NCBI GenBank assembly: GCA_024281215.1
Contig: JAMJTX010000134.1
Coordinates: 1,569 to 65,568, forward strand
Length of the DNA: 64,000 bases
Direction of reading: 5' to 3'
From: Candidatus Thiovulum karukerense
GTDB lineage: Bacteria; Campylobacterota; Campylobacteria; Campylobacterales; Thiovulaceae
In this document: positions 13,082 through 38,581 of the stretch, one piece after another
Numbering within the stretch: the stretch's first letter is position 1
Layout: the number at the start of each line of letters is the position of its first letter
Translations under genes and position numbers: made by a program
The notes under the pieces: model-generated
Database searches by the model: none
Told to the model about the DNA's origin: nothing
The model's input: the letters and a program-made list of their open reading frames with translations, nothing else

Positions 13082-14641
13082 CTACTCTTCAGAAGTTGCT
13101 GTGTCCTCGGAAGTTACAGGTGTTTCTGTTGCATTATCATCTTCAGAAGTTGCTGTATCCTCGGAAGTAATTACTCCACTATCACTAATACCTTTATTAA
13201 CGATTGCTTTTAAGTCACTGACAATGCTTGTTGTAACTTGTCCAAAACCAGTTTTCTGCTCATCGCTCATATTTGCCATTGCATCTGCAAATAGAACACC
13301 GAACATATAGGTAGGGTTTAAGTAACTTACATCAATTGAGTTGTTATTCTCGCCCATAACAATTGCCACTTCACACGGTAGAGCTGTTGCATGATGAACT
13401 CCTGTATCCATAGCCATTTTTGCATAAGTTGGAGAACAGAATTCAAAGACCTTTGTCCCACCAGGAATTGGAAGAGGATCATGTCTTGCAGTAACCCAAT
13501 CATAAGTAGATAAATTTAACTCTTTACCTTGATAGTATGTTGTTGTTGCATTTAAATCTGGATACTCTGTTTGACCATGAATTAATGCTGTATGAAGAAT
13601 CGACTCAGCAATATCATTGATATCTTCTTGAGTAAAAGTTTTATTCTCTTCTGGCTTAAGGTTCTCTACTAAGAATGGCTTTAAGTTTGTAAATAGATTC
13701 ATAAACTCATCAGATGAGATCTCTGCACCCATTCCAATATCTAATGTAGTTATCTCTTTGCTTTCAAGAGCAGAAGAGATCATTGTTTTAATCTGATTTT
13801 TCACATCAAGAGGCATAGATTGAAGTTGTTCCATCATCTCTGCCGGTGCATCTACAAAGAATAGAGAGAAGATAGCTTCTGGATCAAGAATATCAACATA
13901 TGTCTTATTACCATCACTATGAACAGCTATTTCACATGGTAGAGCTGGTGCATGATATGCTCCTGTTGCCATGGCCATACCTGCATACTCCTTATTACAG
14001 AGTTCCACAAGTTTAACTTTATTCCCATCACTAAGAGGCACACCGAGAACATCAGCTGTTACATCACTCTCCTCTCCAGCAACAACCCAGTTACTTGGAA
14101 AAGTTTTACCCTCTGTTCCATAAGATAGGTTTGTCTCATCAGTCTCATCGATATATTGAGCAATAAGAGTTGCGACTTCACCTACTGTTGTCCAGTTTCC
14201 ATCTAGCTCTGCAACTCTTAAGAACGGCTGTACAGAGTAAAGATCTTTCTCTGTTGCATTATCATCTTCAGAAGTTGCAGGTGTTTCTGTTGCATTGTCA
14301 TCTTCAGAAGTTGCAGGTGTCTCTGTTGCATTGTCATCTTCAGAAGTTGCAGGTGTTTCTGTTGCATTGTCATCTTCAGAAGTTGTCGGTGTCTCTGTTG
14401 CATTATCATCTTCAGAAGTTGTCGGTGTCTCTGTTGCATTATCATCTTCAGAAGTTGTCGGTGTCTCTGTTGCACTGTCATCTTCAGAAGTTGAAGGTGT
14501 CTCTGTTGCACTGTCATCTTCAGAAGTTGCAGGTGTCTCTGTTGTTGATGCAATTGGTTCATCATCATTACTTCCACAACCAGTTAAGTTTAGTGAAGCC
14601 AACATTGATATAGCAATAAGTGAGTATCTACTAAATTTCAT
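13082..14641 (-). CDS. Lipoprotein with acidic tandem repeats and two DUF302-like domains
   Basis: Lipobox LTGC. Eight 12-aa TETPxTSEDD(N/S)A repeats. Two internally homologous halves each carry C..YA.MAM.TG..HA.ALPCE(I/V)A(V/I) and a following ..DP/NP.. motif, resembling the DUF302 core. Confidence 0.65.
   Translation of the reverse strand: MKFSRYSLIAISMLASLNLTGCGSNDDEPIASTTETPATSEDDSATETPSTSEDDSATETPTTSEDDNATETPTTSEDDNATETPTTSEDDNATETPATSEDDNATETPATSEDDNATETPATSEDDNATEKDLYSVQPFLRVAELDGNWTTVGEVATLIAQYIDETDETNLSYGTEGKTFPSNWVVAGEESDVTADVLGVPLSDGNKVKLVELCNKEYAGMAMATGAYHAPALPCEIAVHSDGNKTYVDILDPEAIFSLFFVDAPAEMMEQLQSMPLDVKNQIKTMISSALESKEITTLDIGMGAEISSDEFMNLFTNLKPFLVENLKPEENKTFTQEDINDIAESILHTALIHGQTEYPDLNATTTYYQGKELNLSTYDWVTARHDPLPIPGGTKVFEFCSPTYAKMAMDTGVHHATALPCEVAIVMGENNNSIDVSYLNPTYMFGVLFADAMANMSDEQKTGFGQVTTSIVSDLKAIVNKGISDSGVITSEDTATSEDDNATETPVTSEDTATSEE
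14255..14542. repeat. 36-nt tandem repeat, 8 in-frame units (coding)
   Basis: The unit gttgcattRtcatcttcagaagttgYMggtgtYtct is repeated head-to-tail. Degenerate copies also lie at the gene's 3' end (about 13085-13165). Confidence 0.95.
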
Positions 14642-14760
14642 TTAATCCCCCTAGTATTTATAGTTCATAAAATATTATAGCTAAAAATAATACCTCTGTT
14701 TCAAAAAGCTTAAAGTAGATTTAAAGATAGTTATCATTCTCAGATTAATATGAAGCTGTG

Positions 14761-14769: not shown

Positions 14770-14796
14770 TTCCCTATATTGAATGATGGAGAGAGT

Positions 14797-15600
14797 ATGA
14801 GTAAGATAGTAATTCTAAATGCAAAAGGTGGGGTTGGAAAATCAACAATCTCAATGCAAGTTGTTGTCCCCTATCTATATACAAGAAGTGGAAACAAGAT
14901 GATAAATTATTATGAGTTTGATGATGAGAATGAGGATAGCAAGTCATTTATCAACTCAAAACTTGTAAATTCACAACAGATAAAAGTTACAGAGAGTAAT
15001 CTGCGAGATGTAATTACAGATATTGTATTGCGAGATGAACCTATGTGTGTTGATGTAGGAGCGAATAAGACAACAACTTACTTTATGACATCTCTTATAG
15101 ATAGCGGTATGATTGATGCTATTGATATGATTGTGATTCCACTGTCTGATGGAGAACTTGACTCAATTAATGCTATTGAACTCTACTATAAAATTAAAGA
15201 GAGTGGAAGTGATGTAAAAGTTCTATTTATTCTTAATAGATATAACGAACTCCGAGATATTCATTCACAATTTGATATTTTCCTCGGCGACAAAAGAGGG
15301 TTCTTTGATACTCAAGGCTTTATCGAGAATGTTCTTGAAAAAGATAGAAACTATGTAACTCTTGCAGATAGCGATGCTATTAAATATTGCCGAAGTTTCG
15401 GAACAACAGTTTGGGAACTTGCACACCTTGATAGAGACCTTGCTGGACAACTTCGAGAGGCTATAAAAGAGAAGAGAGATAAGCAGGAGATTAAACTTCT
15501 ATCTTTCAAGAAAGCTCTTAAAGGGGATTGCGAACTATTTACAGAGAAGAGTCTTGACCCTATTTTTGAGAGAATCGATAATCTACTCGATAGAGATTAG
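14797..15600 (+). CDS. ParA/MinD-superfamily ATPase (orphan, ParA-like)
   Basis: KIVILNAKGGVGKSTIS deviant Walker A and VDVGANKTT. A GGAGAG RBS precedes the ATG at 14797, so the track start at 14779 (TTG) is probably too early. Confidence 0.7.
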   Translation: MSKIVILNAKGGVGKSTISMQVVVPYLYTRSGNKMINYYEFDDENEDSKSFINSKLVNSQQIKVTESNLRDVITDIVLRDEPMCVDVGANKTTTYFMTSLIDSGMIDAIDMIVIPLSDGELDSINAIELYYKIKESGSDVKVLFILNRYNELRDIHSQFDIFLGDKRGFFDTQGFIENVLEKDRNYVTLADSDAIKYCRSFGTTVWELAHLDRDLAGQLREAIKEKRDKQEIKLLSFKKALKGDCELFTEKSLDPIFERIDNLLDRD

Positions 15601-30601: not shown

Positions 30602-33600
30602 TTGGAGATACCTTACCAGAAACTGTTTAATAAATCGGTTGAGAGAGTTATTCTCTCATCTATAATGTTTCAACCAGAATTTTTAGAGGACTTTATATCT
30701 GAAATTAAAGTTGATGACTTCTATGTCCCATTTCACAGGGATTTTTTTGATGCTGTTTTACGAGTTCATGAGAAAAAAGGGGTTATTACTGAGGAGCTTT
30801 TAAAACTTCAACTTGAAGAGAATGATAAGTTTAAAGAGGAGGAGTTTTTTAGTGTCTTCCTTGAACAGCCCGTTACAAAACTAGATTTTTATGTAAAAGA
30901 GCTAAAGAATAAAAGCACAAAACGGAGACTCCTATCTGTTGCAAAAGAGATTGAAGATGCTATTTTTGAGCAGGATACAGACTCTATCGAACTTCTTAAT
31001 TTTGTCGAGAGTGAGATATTTGCTATTGGGCAGGATAGTGCAACAGGTGGATTTAAGAATACTCCTGAGATTCTTGAAATTACAAAAGCATATATCGAAG
31101 AGATGCGAAACCGAGAGAATAAAACTCTCACAGGTGTTGATACAGGATTTACATCTCTTAATAAGATGACAACAGGTCTTAATGCCGGTGACTTGGTAAT
31201 TCTTGCAGCTAGGCCAGCGATGGGAAAATGTTTATCCTTGGGAACGAATGTTATAAAATATGATGGAAGTGTTGAGAAAGTAGAGAATATCAGAGAGGGA
31301 GATCTTCTGATGGGAGATGACTCAACTCCAAGAAAAGTTCTATCTCTTGCTCGTGGACGAGAGAAGATGTACTGGATTAGACAGAATAAAGGGATTGACT
31401 ATCGAGTGAATGAGTCTCATATTCTTTCACTTAAAAGAAGTAGAAACGAGGGGCGACATAAAAATGGAGATGTCCTAAACATCTCTGTAAAAGAATATAT
31501 TCAGAAGTCTGATAAATTTAAAAGTAACTATAAAGGGTATAAGGTTGCTGTTGAGTTTGAGGAGAAACCTATAACAGTTGAACCATACTTTTTAGGAGTT
31601 TGGCTTGGTGATGGTAGTTCAAGTTCGGTAACGGTTACAAATACAGATAAAGAAGTTGTCCAATTCTTATATAGTTATGCAGAAAGATTAAATTTACAAG
31701 TTCATAAATATAAAGGAAAAAATCGAACAGCAAACTTTAGTATTACGAATGGTAAGAAAGGTTCAAATAATTTTTCACTTCAAGCTCAGTTAAGAGACCT
31801 AAATCTGCTCAATAATAAACATATTCCACAAAACTATTTAACAAATAGTACAGAGATTCGACTTCAACTTCTTGCTGGTCTAATCGATTCTGATGGTCAT
31901 TATGATAGACAGGCGAATGGTTATGAGATAACTCAAAAGAGCGAGAGTTTGGCAAAGCAAATTAAACTTCTTTGTGACTCACTCGGTTTCCGAACATCTC
32001 TTAAAAGTAAAAAGGCAAAGATAAAATCTATCGGTTATGAGGGAACAGTTCATAGAGTGAGATTCTTTGGTGATATTGATAAGATACCTGTAAAAATTGA
32101 GAGAAAAAAAGCGAGAGCTTGGGGTATTAATCGCACTTGGAATCAGACTGGTATTAGAGTTGAAGAGGATATTGTAGATGACTACTACGGCTTTACACTA
32201 GACGGCAATAATCTATTTCTTCTTGAAGATATGACGGTTACTCACAACACAGCTTTTTCATTAAATATTGTCTATCAATCTCTTCAAAATGGTGATGGTG
32301 TGGCATTTTTCTCTCTTGAGATGCCAGTTGAGCAGTTGATGTTAAGACTTCTTAGTATTGACTCCCTTGTTGAGCTTCAGAAGTTAAGAACAGGCGATTT
32401 GAAAAACTCTGAATTAGCCAGATTGAATGAAGCGATGAAGAAGTTTGCCAACTATAAACTATTTATTGATGATGATGGTGGGGTAAATATTCATCAACTC
32501 AGAACAAAACTCCGAAAACTGAAAGCTAAAAATCCTGAACTTGGTTTAGCAGTTATTGACTATATTCAGATTATGAGTTCAAGTGGGTCAAAAGATAGAC
32601 AAGCTGAAGTTAGTGAAATAAGCCGAGGTCTAAAACTTCTAGCTCGTGAATTGAAAATACCTATTTTAGCTCTTTCTCAACTTAATAGATCTCTTGAGAG
32701 TCGAAATGATAAACGACCAATTATGAGTGACATTCGCGAAAGTGGTTGTTTAACGGGAGACTCACTTATTACTAATGGTGTCACTGGTAAAAGATATAGA
32801 ATCGATGATATTGTAGAGAACAGAGATAAACTACTTCCATTTAAAACAAAAGCAATGAGTGACAACTTAAAGATAGATAATTTTAGCATCACAAATGCTT
32901 TCTTTTCTGGAGTAAAAAAAGTCTATCAATTAACTACAAAATCTGGGAAAGTTATTAAGGCTACTGCAAATCATAAATTTTATAGAGTTGACGGTTGGTT
33001 TCCATTAGAAGAGTTAAGAGTTGGAGATAAGATAGCAACACCAGAAAATATGAATAGTGTAGGAGATAAAACTCTTCAAGATGATGAGGTTATTCTCTTA
33101 GCCCATCTATTAGGAGATGGCTCTATTCTTCCAAACCAGCCATATCATTATACAAGTCAAGATATGGAAAATATTGAAATTGTCCAACAGACAGTTCGAA
33201 GACTTTTTAATATTGAGGGCAACATCATTCAACAGAAGAGTTGGTGGCACATCTATCTAAAATCACCTTATCATTTAACACATAATGTGAAAAATCCTAT
33301 CACTCTATGGTTTGAAAAGCTCGGAATAGATAGAGTTCGCTCTTACGATAAAGAGATTCCAGAGATTGTATTTCAATTATTAGAAAAGCAAATAGCTCTC
33401 TTTTTACATCATCTTTGGGCTACTGATGGTTCAATCACTAGACAAAAAGGCAAAAACAATAGAAGCGATAAGATCCAAATCTATTATGCTTCAACTAGCT
33501 ATGTTTTATCTAAACAGGTTCAATCTTTACTTTTAAAGCTTGGAATTATTTCAACTATTAGAAAAAACAGACAGACCAAAAAAGGTAAAGAGTTCCGACC

Positions 33601-34381
33601 AATCTTTCATACATCAATTCAAGGAAAAGAGAATTTAGAGAAATTTCTTCTTAAGATTAACTCATTTGGAAAACGAGGAGAGCCAAAAGATGAATATCTT
33701 CAAATCTTAGCTCAAATTAAGGCAAATCCTAATAATGGTGTAATCGATAAGATTGTTTGGACAACAACTATTAAAGAAGCTAAGGATAGAGCTGGTATCT
33801 CTTGGCGAGATTTTGCAGGTAAGTTAAATATGTCATATGCTGGTAGCACTCTTTTTAAACATGGTATTTCTAAAAATAGAATGAAAAGAGTCGCTAAATT
33901 TTTAAGTGATAAAGATCTAGATAATTTAGCAAACTCTAATATCTATTGGGACGACATTAGCTCTATCGAAGAGCTAGGAGAAGAGAAAACTTATGATTTA
34001 ACTGTCGATTCAGTTCATAACTTTGTTGCAAATGATATTGTTGTCCATAATTCAATTGAACAAGATGCAGATATTATTATGTTTGTCTATCGAGATGATG
34101 TTTATAGATTAAAAGCTGAAAAAGAGAAAGAGAAAGAGGCTCAAGCTAAAGGTGAAAAGTATGTTTCACAAGCTGAAGAGAAGAGTGAAGAGTTGGCAGA
34201 GATTATTATTGGAAAACAGCGAAATGGTCCAACAGGTGTTGTAAAGCTAAATTTTATTAAACATCAAACCAGATTCGTTGATTTTGCAGATGAACATCAC
34301 ACTATTGATGAAGAGGTTCAACAGGCAACTCGAAGCAACCTTGACTCATTAAATAATGATGTGGATATGCCACCAATCTAA
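30602..34381 (+). CDS. dnaB: Replicative DNA helicase DnaB precursor containing two inteins
   Basis: 1259 aa. The exteins (484 aa) carry DnaB motifs: Walker A ARPAMGK|T split by intein 1, IDYIQIM, LSQLNR, and RESG|SIEQDADI split by intein 2. TTG start with AGGGGAG RBS. Confidence 0.9.
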   Translation: MEIPYQKLFNKSVERVILSSIMFQPEFLEDFISEIKVDDFYVPFHRDFFDAVLRVHEKKGVITEELLKLQLEENDKFKEEEFFSVFLEQPVTKLDFYVKELKNKSTKRRLLSVAKEIEDAIFEQDTDSIELLNFVESEIFAIGQDSATGGFKNTPEILEITKAYIEEMRNRENKTLTGVDTGFTSLNKMTTGLNAGDLVILAARPAMGKCLSLGTNVIKYDGSVEKVENIREGDLLMGDDSTPRKVLSLARGREKMYWIRQNKGIDYRVNESHILSLKRSRNEGRHKNGDVLNISVKEYIQKSDKFKSNYKGYKVAVEFEEKPITVEPYFLGVWLGDGSSSSVTVTNTDKEVVQFLYSYAERLNLQVHKYKGKNRTANFSITNGKKGSNNFSLQAQLRDLNLLNNKHIPQNYLTNSTEIRLQLLAGLIDSDGHYDRQANGYEITQKSESLAKQIKLLCDSLGFRTSLKSKKAKIKSIGYEGTVHRVRFFGDIDKIPVKIERKKARAWGINRTWNQTGIRVEEDIVDDYYGFTLDGNNLFLLEDMTVTHNTAFSLNIVYQSLQNGDGVAFFSLEMPVEQLMLRLLSIDSLVELQKLRTGDLKNSELARLNEAMKKFANYKLFIDDDGGVNIHQLRTKLRKLKAKNPELGLAVIDYIQIMSSSGSKDRQAEVSEISRGLKLLARELKIPILALSQLNRSLESRNDKRPIMSDIRESGCLTGDSLITNGVTGKRYRIDDIVENRDKLLPFKTKAMSDNLKIDNFSITNAFFSGVKKVYQLTTKSGKVIKATANHKFYRVDGWFPLEELRVGDKIATPENMNSVGDKTLQDDEVILLAHLLGDGSILPNQPYHYTSQDMENIEIVQQTVRRLFNIEGNIIQQKSWWHIYLKSPYHLTHNVKNPITLWFEKLGIDRVRSYDKEIPEIVFQLLEKQIALFLHHLWATDGSITRQKGKNNRSDKIQIYYASTSYVLSKQVQSLLLKLGIISTIRKNRQTKKGKEFRPIFHTSIQGKENLEKFLLKINSFGKRGEPKDEYLQILAQIKANPNNGVIDKIVWTTTIKEAKDRAGISWRDFAGKLNMSYAGSTLFKHGISKNRMKRVAKFLSDKDLDNLANSNIYWDDISSIEELGEEKTYDLTVDSVHNFVANDIVVHNSIEQDADIIMFVYRDDVYRLKAEKEKEKEAQAKGEKYVSQAEEKSEELAEIIIGKQRNGPTGVVKLNFIKHQTRFVDFADEHHTIDEEVQQATRSNLDSLNNDVDMPPI
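31229..32248 (+). mobile_element. DnaB intein 1 (340 aa) in the P-loop, with LAGLIDADG homing endonuclease domain
   Basis: Starts with Cys (GK|CLSLG) and ends VTHN|T. Block B is NESHILSL. LAGLIDADG motifs are YFLGVWLGDGSS and LLAGLIDSDGHY. Confidence 0.85.
32747..34051 (+). mobile_element. DnaB intein 2 (435 aa) at the RESG/SIEQDAD site, with LAGLIDADG homing endonuclease domain
   Basis: Starts with Cys (ESG|CLTGDSLI) and ends VVHN|S. Block B is TANHKF. LAGLIDADG-like motifs are LLAHLLGDGSI and HLWATDGSI. Confidence 0.85.
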
Positions 34382-34607: not shown

Positions 34608-36383
34608 ATGGGTAATAGAGTTTTAAAAACAGGACTTTTAAGTTTAACAGCTGCTAGTTTATTAACTACTGGTGCATTCGCTTTTACTGTTAGTGGTACA
34701 GATAATGCTATTAGTGGAAGTGCTTTCAAAAAACTTGGTGGAAGATTAGATGTTGCAAAAATTACAGTTCAAACAGATTATATTTTTGAGATTACAAACC
34801 TTGAAGTAAATGTAACTCAAGATGTTAATGATACAGAAAGCTACCTCCAAACTGTTAAACTTTTTGGCGAAAGTTTAAATGAGGAGAACAAAATTGCTGA
34901 GAAGACAATCACTTTAGCTCCAAAAGATGAAAATGCAACTACAAAAGATGCAAATGTTGTATTTACAGCTAGTGATTTCTCAAATGCTAATTCTAATTTC
35001 TTAACATTTGAAGCTGGTAAAAACTTATATGTTGCTCTCCAATATGGTGCTATTAATAGTGCAACAGGTAAAGATAGTACAATAACAGTTAAAGCTGGTA
35101 ACTTAAAAGTTGTAGCAACAGATGATGAAAATAATACAGGTGACTCTAACATCACTTTTGCTTCTAGAAGCTTTACAATTGATAGAACTGCTCCAACTCT
35201 TCAATCAATTTCATCTGCACTATCAACAGGATTCAACACCCCTACTGTTACACTTAAATTTAGTGAGCCTGTAAAAATAAATGGTGGAACAACAGCTGCA
35301 AAAGATGGTAAGGCTGATGCTATCTCAGTTACATCGCATACAGTAAGCACTACTGATACTAATGCTACTACTATTACACTTGGTAGTGAGCTTAACTCAA
35401 CTCTATCTGGTGATGTTTATGTATCTTACACAGACAATCAAATTACAGATATTTTTGGAAACTTAGCTGTACTTGATAGAAATGTATCTGTTAGCTATTA
35501 TGATTCTAAAAACAATAAATCAAGTAGCCGACACGAAGTTGTAGCTCTCGCAACTGGTGTAAAAGCATATGATGATAACACATCAGCAACAATTGAAGCT
35601 GTGCATGTTGATTTTGATACAAAATCAAGCGGATATGTGCTTTTCACAGAAGAGGTTAAGACTCCTGCTCTATGGAACATCAAAAATAACAATGGTGCAA
35701 CTTTAACTTTTGGAACAGCTGAAGAGTCTAGTAACAAAACAAAAGTACCATTTACTATTACAAGTGGTTCTATTACAGATTTAGATTTATATTTTAAAGA
35801 TGGTAATAGTACAACATCTGTTATAGATTATGGTGAGAATAACTCAACTTCTTCAGAGGGTAACTATACTCCAAAACACATTACAACTCTTTCAATCAAA
35901 GAGGGTTGGAACTTAATCGCTCTCAACTCACAAACAAGAACAACATCTGAAAGAGTCATTAAAAGTGGTGCTGTTGAGATGATCTGGGGTTATGACAACG
36001 ATAACGGAAAGTGGAATAGATTCCCTCAAGACATTAAAGCTGGTCACGGTTACTGGGTAAAAGGTAATAAAAACTTTGCAGAGTTCAATAACTCAAAAAT
36101 TGAGTATGCAGACTTAAATGATGAGACTGCGAAAGCTTATGATGTTAATAACTCAACAGTAATTAAAAATGCTGGTAAAACAGGTTGGGCATTAGTTGGA
36201 ACAAAAGAGACTAACTTAACTTGGGCAGAAGCTTACTCACAAGTTGCTGATGGTTGTTACGGAGTATCTGTATATGCTTATGACAACGGCAACGGTTGGA
36301 ATAGTTCTGCAACAGGAATTCCTGCTAACTCTGGTGTATGGGTTAAACAAGACTGTGACAACGAGTACAATATCGGTCAATAG
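34608..36383 (+). CDS. Secreted surface protein, Ig-like middle region and C-terminal GW-module repeats; sequon-rich
   Basis: Signal peptide (..TTGAFA|F). FTIDRTAPTL Ig-like domain boundary motif. Two C-terminal GW(N/A)L..(W/Y).YD..NG.W....G.WVK modules. About 15 D/E-x-N-x-S/T sites. Confidence 0.6.
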   Translation: MGNRVLKTGLLSLTAASLLTTGAFAFTVSGTDNAISGSAFKKLGGRLDVAKITVQTDYIFEITNLEVNVTQDVNDTESYLQTVKLFGESLNEENKIAEKTITLAPKDENATTKDANVVFTASDFSNANSNFLTFEAGKNLYVALQYGAINSATGKDSTITVKAGNLKVVATDDENNTGDSNITFASRSFTIDRTAPTLQSISSALSTGFNTPTVTLKFSEPVKINGGTTAAKDGKADAISVTSHTVSTTDTNATTITLGSELNSTLSGDVYVSYTDNQITDIFGNLAVLDRNVSVSYYDSKNNKSSSRHEVVALATGVKAYDDNTSATIEAVHVDFDTKSSGYVLFTEEVKTPALWNIKNNNGATLTFGTAEESSNKTKVPFTITSGSITDLDLYFKDGNSTTSVIDYGENNSTSSEGNYTPKHITTLSIKEGWNLIALNSQTRTTSERVIKSGAVEMIWGYDNDNGKWNRFPQDIKAGHGYWVKGNKNFAEFNNSKIEYADLNDETAKAYDVNNSTVIKNAGKTGWALVGTKETNLTWAEAYSQVADGCYGVSVYAYDNGNGWNSSATGIPANSGVWVKQDCDNEYNIGQ

Positions 36384-36490: not shown

Positions 36491-38581
36491 ATGAAAACAT
36501 TCTATTCGCTACTGATGATTTTAGCGATCTCATTTTTTGCCACTGGTTGTAGTAGTTCTAGTGATGAACCAACAACAGCAGTAGCAACAGATGATAACAC
36601 CTCAACAGGTGGTGAAAATAACACTACAACTTGTGAGGCTGATCAAACACTAGTTGATGGTGTATGTGTTGATAATGAACCAGCTCCAACTTGTGAGGCA
36701 AATCAAACACTAGTTGATGGTGTATGTGTTGATAATGAACCAGCTCCAACTTGTGAGGCAAATCAAACACTAGTTGATGGTGTATGTGTTGATAATGAAC
36801 CAGCTTCAACTTGTGAAGCTGACCAAACACTAGTTGATGGTGTATGTGTTGATAACGAACCAGCTCCAGCTTGTGATGAAAACAGCACAATTGAGAATGG
36901 TGAGTGTGTTGATGGTGAAATCCAATGTAATGCTGATTATCTATTAACTGATGGTCAATGTACAATCGATCCAGCTATTGAGTGTAATGATGGCGACACT
37001 ATCTCTCATGGTAGTTGTGAAGATAGAAAAGTAGTATGTTACGAAAACTTCAGTAAAGATGCTGAGGGTAACTGTGTTGCTGATACTTTAGCTTGTGCTT
37101 TCAATGAAGTTCAAGTTGTTGAAGAAGAGACAAATGAGTGTGTTGAGCCAGAGAATCAAGATATCACTTCAGGAACAGCAAGAGATGGTTTAATCTCTGG
37201 TGCTACTGTTACAGCTTGTAAAGTTGTAAATGGTGAGAAGAGTGAAGCTAATGCAACTTGTACTGATACTAACTCATCTGGTGAATTCCAGTGTGCAGTA
37301 AGAGAGAGTAGTGATAGTTACGAATATCTTATATTTAAAGTTGTAAGTGGAACAGATATTGGTGAAAATGTTGCCGATACTAGAGACGACAGACCAAATG
37401 TTGATACTCTAAAATCTGTTTTAAGTAGCAGTGATGTTGTTGCTAATAAAAAAGCTTTTGTATCTCCAGCTACAACTCTTATAGTTCTAAATGCTTCAAA
37501 TAACGGATATGATATCGGGAGTGCAAAGAAAGATATTGCAGATGCTCTAAATGTCTCTGAAGATGATATGTTTGATGAAACAGCTGGTATAAAAGCTGGA
37601 ACTATTGTTGCAAATATTATTGATGCACTAGGTAGTGTTGATAGAGCTAATGCATTTACTATCCTATCTACTAAAACAGCTATTTATGATGAAAATGGTG
37701 TTGTTAATGGACTTTTAACTGAGTTAAATCCGTCAATTACAGCAGAAAGTGTTGTATCTGCTCTTATTAAAGAGAGTGTTGATACTCCATCAGAAAATAG
37801 TGAAACTATTATTGACCTTATTGCAGATAGAGTTGATGCTAACAAAACTGTTTCTGAAACTGTTGTAGCTAATATTAAAACTGTTGTTGAAGCTGATATC
37901 ACAGATAAGACAAATACAGCTCTTTTAGATGTTGTTGCAGAAGTAACAGATCTTAACATTACAAAAATAGATAAAGTCAAAGAGATTCTTGATGCAACAA
38001 CTGATGATACAGCTGCTTCTGAGAAAATCAAAGAGGAGTGGAGTAATATCCTCTCTATAACAGTTGATGATATTAAGAGTGCAATTGGCGAGGATACAAC
38101 TCCAACTTGTGAAGCTAATCAAACTTTAGTTGATGGTGTATGTGTTGATAACAATGTCACTGAAGATAATGCAACAACGGTATGTGATGAGAACAGCACA
38201 ATTGAGAATGGTCAATGTATTGATGGCAATATCACTTGTGACAGCGGGTTCTCTCTAAATAGCGATAACAATGTGTGTGTTCAAGATGATGAGCCAGAGA
38301 CACCAACAATCACTTGTCCAACTGGTGAGACTCTAGTTAATGGTCAATGTATTGTAGTTCAGAAAGATGAAGTCTCTTCACCTGAGGATGTTCCAGCTCT
38401 TCCAACAGATAGAGCATTTGTAGTTGTGCCAGATAGTTTTCCATCTATTCCAAGTGATAGTGATTACAACTCAACAGATAGTTTAGATACGAATCCTACA
38501 ACTCCTGCTGATAATAGCTATCCTTCTCCAGTCTCAATTAGTGGTGAAAATAACAGCACTACACCTTATAGTGTAAATTAA
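36491..38581 (+). CDS. Lipoprotein with Cys-pair (C-x6-8-G-x-C) repeats; sequon-rich
   Basis: Lipobox ATGC. Four 20-aa units TCE(A/D)(N/D)QTLVDGVCVDNEPAP plus about 12 further divergent C...G.C units at both ends. The central ~330 aa are Cys-poor. Confidence 0.6.
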   Translation: MKTFYSLLMILAISFFATGCSSSSDEPTTAVATDDNTSTGGENNTTTCEADQTLVDGVCVDNEPAPTCEANQTLVDGVCVDNEPAPTCEANQTLVDGVCVDNEPASTCEADQTLVDGVCVDNEPAPACDENSTIENGECVDGEIQCNADYLLTDGQCTIDPAIECNDGDTISHGSCEDRKVVCYENFSKDAEGNCVADTLACAFNEVQVVEEETNECVEPENQDITSGTARDGLISGATVTACKVVNGEKSEANATCTDTNSSGEFQCAVRESSDSYEYLIFKVVSGTDIGENVADTRDDRPNVDTLKSVLSSSDVVANKKAFVSPATTLIVLNASNNGYDIGSAKKDIADALNVSEDDMFDETAGIKAGTIVANIIDALGSVDRANAFTILSTKTAIYDENGVVNGLLTELNPSITAESVVSALIKESVDTPSENSETIIDLIADRVDANKTVSETVVANIKTVVEADITDKTNTALLDVVAEVTDLNITKIDKVKEILDATTDDTAASEKIKEEWSNILSITVDDIKSAIGEDTTPTCEANQTLVDGVCVDNNVTEDNATTVCDENSTIENGQCIDGNITCDSGFSLNSDNNVCVQDDEPETPTITCPTGETLVNGQCIVVQKDEVSSPEDVPALPTDRAFVVVPDSFPSIPSDSDYNSTDSLDTNPTTPADNSYPSPVSISGENNSTTPYSVN
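36629..36868. repeat. 60-nt tandem repeat, 4 in-frame units (coding)
   Basis: Units 2 and 3 (36689-36748 and 36749-36808) are identical. An isolated related copy lies at about 38100-38155. Confidence 0.95.

Follow-up and report, generated by a model that had tools for sequence, protein, structure and literature searches.

In Campylobacter jejuni, the substrates of the oligosaccharyltransferase PglB are periplasmic proteins and lipoproteins that carry their sequons in exposed loops, usually at one to a few dispersed sites. The requirement for Asp or Glu (D/E) two residues before the acceptor Asn is the 'minus-two rule' of Campylobacter PglB, and homologues of this enzyme are common in Campylobacterota (PMC4894442). 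The sequence DQNAT is the experimentally optimal acceptor and is modified by PglB as an engineered C-terminal tag (Ollis et al. 2015, PMC4894442). A natural array of acceptor sites is found in C. jejuni Cj1433c, in which the N-terminus has nine perfect copies of KIDLNNT (the 'GlycoTag'; Nothaft et al. 2016, PMC4879521). This repeat received up to nine N-glycans when it was exported in Escherichia coli with the pgl locus, and the glycosylation was shown for a ToxC fusion in E. coli alone, not for the native protein (PMC4879521). All sequons of a tightly spaced tandem repeat can thus serve as acceptors. A protein with a DUF302 domain has been described from the sox cluster of Acidithiobacillia (PMC5037610). 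Here, we analysed a gene of Candidatus Thiovulum karukerense (Campylobacterota; Campylobacterales), an uncultured sulfur oxidiser, that combines a tandem array of sequons with DUF302 domains. The gene lies at 13082..14641 on the minus strand of a 64,000-nt stretch of DNA (GenBank assembly GCA_024281215.1, contig JAMJTX010000134.1, positions 1,569 to 65,568; hereafter the window), and it encodes a 519-residue lipoprotein with a signal peptide, a repeat tether, a double DUF302 core and an acidic C-terminal tail, as judged from the list of open reading frames (ORFs), Pfam and homologues. A natural tandem sequon array has a precedent in Cj1433c, and the idea is thus not unprecedented. We assign a probability of roughly 0.68 to the reading that the array forms the tether of a cell-envelope lipoprotein, that its multiplied acceptor sites are used by a PglB-type enzyme, and that it is variable in length.

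A tandem array of candidate N-glycosylation sites in a predicted lipoprotein tether

Tandem Repeats Finder reported a repeat with a period of 36, 8.2 copies, 95% matches, no indels and a score of 496 at 14248-14544. When the ORF on the minus strand was read in register, eight complete head-to-tail units of 36 nt were found, running exactly from 14542 to 14255 (residues 34-129; Tandem Repeats Finder, unit table and sequon list). Units 1-2 read TETP(A/S)TSEDDSA, units 3-5 read TETPTTSEDDNA, and units 6-8 read TETPATSEDDNA. With the Thr that adjoins each of them, units 3-8 form six DDNAT sequons with the Asn at residues 68, 80, 92, 104, 116 and 128. Units 1-2 give DDSAT because the N/S codon is AGT, compared to AAT in units 3-8. 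The array is therefore an in-frame head-to-tail repeat with one sequon per unit in 6/8 units. At the nucleotide level, the units are 92-100% identical and vary at 5/36 positions, of which three are synonymous and two change solely the 'x' and the N/S residues. A seventh DDNAT is present at residues 499-503. The 50 nt around it (13104-13153) match the junction of units 7 and 8 at 92% identity, which marks the C-terminal tail as a displaced DNA copy of an array unit. These results bear out what the original prediction had read from the letters, that is, eight 36-nt TETPxTSEDD(N/S)A units at 14255-14542, a D-D-N-A-T junction in six of them, Ser for Asn in the first two, and a seventh DDNAT in a related C-terminal repeat. 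Other ORFs that cross the repeat on both strands were rejected as products of its periodicity; the real frame is the 519-residue ORF, which has a lipobox, two DUF302 matches and 136 homologues, all with DUF302.

The protein begins with a signal peptide and lipobox (MKFSRYSLIAISMLASLNLTG/C, residues 1-22, 14576..14641, minus strand, from the translation). The n-region has K2 and R5, the h-region is SLIAISMLASL, and the lipobox is L-T-G-C at residues 19-22. By these sequence features, the N-terminus is a type II signal peptide, and export to the periplasm is predicted. A lipobox-like x-x-(G/A/S)-C was present in 28 of the first 32 homologues listed and was undetected in most of the more distant matches. 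Between the lipidated Cys and the array lies an acidic lead-in, GSNDDEPIAST (residues 23-33, 14543..14575, minus strand). The tether as a whole (residues 23-130, 108 residues) consists of 27% Thr, 32% Asp plus Glu, 12% Ser and 8% Pro; its hydrophobic residues are one Ile and 13 Ala alone, and its net charge is -35.

Pfam matched DUF302 (PF03625) in two stretches of the protein (E = 2.4e-14; score 53.4 bits, cut-off 23). AlphaFold2, run with an alignment of 63 homologues, predicted a folded core at about residues 135-495 (13157..14239, minus strand), which comprises the two DUF302 domains and seven dispersed sequons and has a predicted local distance difference test score (pLDDT) mostly above 90. 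Residues 1-130 had a pLDDT of about 40-50 (under 50 for the greater part of residues 1-101, then near 49 as far as residue 120), and the last 17 residues (503-519) were below 50. These last residues belong to a disordered acidic C-terminal tail, GVITSEDTATSEDDNATETPVTSEDTATSEE (13085..13177, minus strand, from the DNA comparison and pLDDT), which contains the seventh DDNAT. Foldseek matched the core to the DUF302 structures 1q9u and 1j3m and to the DUF302-like 7tj1 with a probability of 1.0 and an E of about 1e-3; a sequence search of the PDB with the core found no relative. Each DUF302 domain has one invariant Cys pair (C215/C236 and C402/C423). For most of the core sequons (N149, N245, N333 and N376), the predicted position is a turn, a loop or the end of a secondary-structure element.

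Since a lipid anchor, predicted disorder and a globular double-DUF302 core follow one another, the array would be a flexible tether between anchor and head. The model places the array in a predicted disordered, exposed segment, with the lipid anchor on one side and the folded core on the other. PglB substrates that are modified in the folded state are known to place their sequons in disordered, flexible segments.

Eight and three units in near-identical flanks

The cluster of the lipoprotein at 90% identity has three members. A contig from Joint Genome Institute (JGI) sample 3300048662 (L002) has eight units and matches the window with 100% identity along 4,757 nt. A contig from JGI sample 3300048663 (L001) has flanks that are 99.7-99.9% identical to the window and has three units, which correspond to window units 6-8. 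The window population is also represented in SRA run SRR35930561. The difference between L001 and the window is 180 nt and in register, with 11 single-nucleotide polymorphisms (SNPs) in 6.3 kb. The lead-in of L001 is GSSDDEPIAST, in which Ser replaces Asn at residue 25, a single amino-acid change beside the lipobox. The finding of eight versus three units suggests copy-number variation.

The units are near-identical and their length is a multiple of three (36 nt, 95% matches, no indels), as expected of a variable-number tandem repeat. Because the unit is 36 nt long, variation changes the length and the number of sequons and not the reading frame. From its unit structure, the array would be a length-variable repeat and not an on/off phase switch.

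The array had also been predicted to be prone to length variation. The three and eight units in near-identical flanks agree with this prediction; on the other side, the three-unit allele is the sole variant and comes from a short-read metagenome assembly, with unit numbers taken from the assembled contigs, so that it may be a collapsed repeat, which counts against the length-variable part of our reading. We consider it possible, though unlikely, that the eight-versus-three difference is such an assembly artefact in L001. L001 is a 6.3-kb short-read metagenome contig with three units that equal window units 6-8. Over the first 31 nt, units 1 and 6 agree at 30 positions, so a de Bruijn graph could jump between them. 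However, L001 comes from a distinct strain, as seen from its 11 SNPs and Ser25, and its flank-unit junction (…AST followed by ACAGAA) is absent from the eight-unit allele, so reads of the eight-unit type alone would not account for it. In addition, the sister sample assembled all eight units in L002. A collapse could still have occurred within a strain whose first unit starts with ACAGAA. An exact search for the 29-mer at the repeat junction, which is present in L001 and L002, gave no match in a metagenome-contig collection and was uninformative because the collection does not hold samples 3300048662 and 3300048663.

Acidic residues at position -2 of sequons in exported proteins

The search for a pglB gene that had been proposed as a check was run within the window and found none. 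We therefore sought the footprint of a PglB-type enzyme in the exported proteins of the window. All window ORFs of at least 150 residues were included, 8 encoding exported proteins and 39 encoding others. In the pooled data, D/E was present at position -2 in 52/77 N-x-S/T sites of exported proteins compared to 7/96 sites of non-exported proteins (Fisher p = 1.4e-17). When each repeat copy was counted once, the numbers were 45/70 and 7/96 (p = 1.9e-15). The density of N-x-S/T was 2.0 per 100 residues in exported proteins and 0.66 in the others. Around the exported sequons, the frequency of D/E was 0.64 at -2 versus 0.11-0.24 at -5 to -3, -1 and +3 to +5, and it was 0.03 at +1; at position -2 of non-sequon Asn it was 0.17. 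The results show that the excess of D/E is confined to position -2 of sequons and to exported proteins.

The DUF302 lipoprotein itself has 14 D/E-x-N-x-S/T sequons without Pro at -1 or +1, of which six are in the array. Position -2 is D/E in 14/16 of its N-x-S/T sites (binomial p = 7e-9), and in 9/10 when the repeat copies are counted once (p = 3e-6). A secreted protein of 591 residues (34608-36383, plus strand), which has no family match, has D/E at -2 in 15/20 sites (p = 7e-11). A second lipoprotein (36491-38581, plus strand), for which no Pfam or NCBIfam match was found, has it in 16/21 sites, or 14/19 after de-duplication. The cytoplasmic, intein-bearing DnaB (30602-34381, plus strand) has D/E at -2 in 0/15 sites. 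The gene at 36491-38581 contains a second in-frame tandem array (36627-36876, plus strand; 60 nt x 4.2 copies, Tandem Repeats Finder score 437). Its unit is PTCEA(N/D)QTLVDGVCVDNEPA; two units have the sequon EANQT and two have EADQT, which lacks the Asn. A further copy of the EANQT module is found near the C-terminus of the same protein. The secreted 591-residue protein is the densest candidate N-glycoprotein of the window.

To our knowledge, no system other than the PglB type selects for D/E at -2. The signature in the exported proteins is therefore a strong, though indirect, sign of a PglB-type enzyme.

The same pattern was seen among orthologues of the lipoprotein from named genomes, where it followed the phylum known to have PglB. 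In 30 copies from Campylobacterota, D/E was at -2 in 69/117 N-x-S/T sites (0.87 sites per 100 residues), and in 50 copies from Gammaproteobacteria and other taxa it was at -2 in 23/84 sites (0.35 per 100 residues). Single metagenomic homologues reached 10/13, 10/10 and 6/6. The sequons at residues 149, 245 and 333 are common to the closest relatives, and 19 homologues have one in the column of residue 433. The repeat was present in this species alone among the 120 best protein matches; in the next relatives (46-50% identity), the linker is short and non-repetitive. Each Campylobacterota-like homologue has 1-3 single sequons in its N-terminal linker. The simplest history would be that the linker already had a sequon in an ancestor and that tandem duplication multiplied it in this lineage.

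These data bear on an alternative in which the array is an unmodified acidic spacer rich in Thr, Ser and Pro, and the DDNAT sequences are an unused by-product of the amplification of the module. The unit is acidic and of low complexity, as in a common type of lipoprotein tether; units 1-2 serve as spacer without Asn; the NCBIfam matches, to repeat regions of wall proteins, were all weak and of low complexity; and no oligosaccharyltransferase gene was found in the window. However, the same lipoprotein has seven further sequons outside the repeat, and the -2 rule holds for 9 of its 10 distinct N-x-S/T sites. It also holds for most sites of the two other exported proteins described above, but for few sites of non-exported proteins. 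The linkers of Campylobacterota orthologues carry sequons too. A compositional cause would also raise D/E at -1 and -3, which was not seen. We regard the unmodified spacer as improbable.

Search for an oligosaccharyltransferase

PglB homologues proved abundant and diverse. A search with C. lari PglB as the seed, which was checked against PDB 3rce, was saturated by Campylobacter. A profile search of representatives at 50% identity gave 150 diverse PglBs, and the representative library has 1,206 clusters (50% identity) at E <= 1e-10, among them clusters from Sulfurimonas, Wolinella and Helicobacteraceae. Twenty cluster look-ups returned no Thiovulum name. Inspection of six candidate contigs revealed two pglB loci with a pgl-like cluster from the JGI sample series of the window population, one at 10001-12094 of contig L139 and one at 10001-12124 of contig L142. 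Among the genes next to them are a PglC-like transferase, a PglF-like dehydratase, GT4 transferases, a DegT aminotransferase and a Wzy_C protein; in L139, a Wzy_C (O-antigen-ligase/PglL-like) gene overlaps the start of pglB. The GC content of the two loci is 0.31 versus 0.36 for the window. The tetranucleotide correlation (r) of the loci to the window is 0.77-0.80, compared to 0.985 within the window and 0.98 between L139 and L142. Since their composition is unlike that of the window, the loci are assigned to another, co-habiting organism, and L139 and L142 are probably from one co-habiting Campylobacterota with two PglB paralogues. A contig of a relative with 90% Pgk identity (from a different project) gave no link, and in a search of the Thiovulum literature, glycosylation or pgl was nowhere mentioned.

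Several results weigh against the use of the array by a PglB-type enzyme. The window has no WWDYG motif in six frames, tblastn of the window with 11 diverse PglB queries gave no match, and the only ATP-binding cassette exporter of the window is MsbA-like and not PglK. The pglB genes of L139 and L142 were rejected as genes of the source genome because their GC content and tetranucleotide profile differ from those of the window. PglB is absent from some Campylobacterota. No PglB substrate test of DDNAT, with Asp at -1, was found in the literature. The N-glycosylated acidic stalk that had been predicted is therefore upheld in part: a disordered acidic tether and the -2 signature in exported proteins speak for it, and the lack of pglB in the window speaks against it. 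From the sequon signature and the phylogenetic position, we infer that the source genome encodes a PglB, and the Asn residues of the array may well carry glycans.

A further alternative is that the tether is O-glycosylated on Thr and Ser in a mucin-like manner, instead of or besides N-glycosylation. The tether is 39% Thr plus Ser and 8% Pro, and the Wzy_C gene directly upstream of pglB in L139, from the co-habiting Campylobacterota, indicates that O-antigen-ligase/PglL-like enzymes occur in the community. However, no general O-glycosylation system or O-oligosaccharyltransferase gene was found in the window, and O-glycosylation leaves the acidic -2 rule around Asn unexplained. As an addition to N-glycosylation by a PglB-type enzyme, it is compatible with our explanation; as a rival to it, we find it quite improbable. 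It is very improbable that the SEDD repeats were selected to bind cations (Ca2+ or other metals) or mineral or sulfur surfaces, as might be suggested by the net charge of -35 over 108 residues and a double-DUF302 family confined to sulfur oxidisers, since the repeats have no known metal-binding motif, no orthologue among the matches listed has such a tether, and the sequon statistics would be left unexplained.

Genomic context and the double-DUF302 family

The window is ordinary chromosome with a GC content of 35.8%, and it contains gap, pgk, lpxB, an msbA-like gene, hemL, carA, dnaB, feoB, ftsA/Z and other housekeeping genes. Its Pgk is identical to an NCBI/JGI protein; it is 80% identical to that of Thiovulum sp. 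ES, 83% to that of a 'Campylobacterales bacterium' metagenome-assembled genome (MAG), and about 70% to those of Sulfurimonas and Sulfuricurvum. The replicative helicase DnaB (30602-34381, plus strand) has 1,259 residues and is interrupted by two intein/homing-endonuclease insertions, one with Hom_end_hint and Hom_end, and one with Intein_splicing and LAGLIDADG_3.

Upstream of the DUF302 lipoprotein gene, a Shine-Dalgarno-like AGGGGGA (14646..14652, minus strand) lies 4 nt ahead of the ATG at 14641. A TATAAT hexamer at 14674..14679 (minus strand), 33 nt upstream of the ATG, may be a -10 box; both elements were read from the DNA. A scan for the sigma-70 consensus did not report this hexamer because it lacks a -35 match, and such a scan is uninformative for this type of promoter. 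Divergent from the lipoprotein gene is an orphan gene for a ParA/MipZ-like P-loop ATPase with weak Pfam matches only (14779-15600, plus strand), which is followed downstream by an SNF-family transporter and then by a membrane protein with a C-terminal double zinc ribbon. The arrangement of these three genes is kept in the three-unit strain (L001).

Double-DUF302 lipoproteins are found in sulfur oxidisers, including Sulfurimonadaceae, Sulfurovum, Chromatiaceae, Thiomargarita and Thiobacillus. A search of contigs with a profile of the family alignment gave a best orthologue in representative genomes that is 40% identical. In named genomes (loci L057-L136), the neighbours of the family include an OmpR-type response regulator (50 loci), a TlpA-like thioredoxin (28), a rhodanese (15), a sensor kinase (14) and a monothiol glutaredoxin (11); none of them adjoins the window gene. 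The invariant Cys residues and these neighbours hint at a periplasmic thiol- or sulfur-handling role of the family.

Discussion

The results can be joined in the following mechanism. Once the protein has been exported and lipidated at Cys22, a stretch of about 108 residues would form an unfolded spacer that holds the globular double-DUF302 domain off the membrane. Tandem duplication of the 12-residue module would have turned one D-D-N-A-T acceptor into six copies; the duplicated C-terminal module has a seventh, and the core has seven dispersed sequons. A periplasmic PglB-type oligosaccharyltransferase would then most likely glycosylate the exposed Asn residues, and the tether would presumably become a dense, protease-resistant, hydrated stalk, with a corresponding biological effect. 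Because the units keep the frame and share 92-100% identity, their number would change by unequal recombination or slippage, which would alter tether length and glycan load and leave the gene intact.

If the array is glycosylated, it would be only the second natural tandem array of PglB sequons to be found, and the first in a member of the Campylobacterota that is environmental and non-pathogenic. In that case, heavy N-glycosylation of the envelope would reach well beyond Campylobacter. It would also offer an acidic, soluble multi-site acceptor with a spacing of 12 residues for glycoconjugate engineering, as an alternative to GlycoTag, with its Asn-to-Ser units as built-in controls. One 64-kb contig was enough for the -2 D/E statistic to work, and for incomplete MAGs the statistic could be a cheap indicator of an active PglB-type system. 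The mechanism follows the established rules of PglB, and the conceptual advance is modest.

The scale of the exported sequons (a density of about 2 per 100 residues, with as many as 20 in one protein), together with two tandem sequon arrays within 25 kb, raises a wider idea, which we offer tentatively and think more apt to fail than to hold: the exported proteome may have been remodelled for dense PglB-type N-glycosylation, with in-frame amplification of sequon modules tuning glycan load and tether length between strains. If so, the cell envelope of this organism, which is known for secreting mucous veils, would bear a length-variable 'glycan brush'.

The locus differs from each of the systems that resemble it. 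It shares the DUF302 fold and occurrence in sulfur oxidisers with the sox-linked DUF302 proteins. However, the sox-cluster protein, 1q9u and 1j3m are single-domain proteins of about 130-190 residues without a repeat tether, whereas two DUF302 domains are present here. Like the known substrates in C. jejuni, among which lipoproteins are frequent, the protein is predicted to be exported and has extended sequons in predicted flexible regions, but it has 14 sequons in 519 residues and a tandem block, compared to a few dispersed sites. The array is like the DQNAT tag in that both provide a short flexible D-x-N-A-T peptide on an exported protein, and DDNAT differs from DQNAT solely at the permissive -1 position; the tag is synthetic and single-site in the cited work, whereas the array is natural and has six to seven sites, with a spacing of 12 residues. 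The array of Cj1433c and the one described here are both natural, N-terminal, head-to-tail repeats from Campylobacterota with one D/E-x-N-x-S/T (DLNNT in Cj1433c) per sequon unit, and the Cj1433c repeat functions in the manner proposed for this array. The unit described here is 12 residues (36 nt), strongly acidic and rich in Thr and Pro, in contrast to the basic/neutral unit of 7 residues (21 nt) of Cj1433c. Unlike the Cj1433c array, it has a lipoprotein tether, natural Asn-to-Ser units and a copy at the C-terminus. TETPxTSEDDNA and KIDLNNT have no sequence homology and have the sequon logic alone in common, so the likeness between the two arrays is one of analogy and not of common descent.

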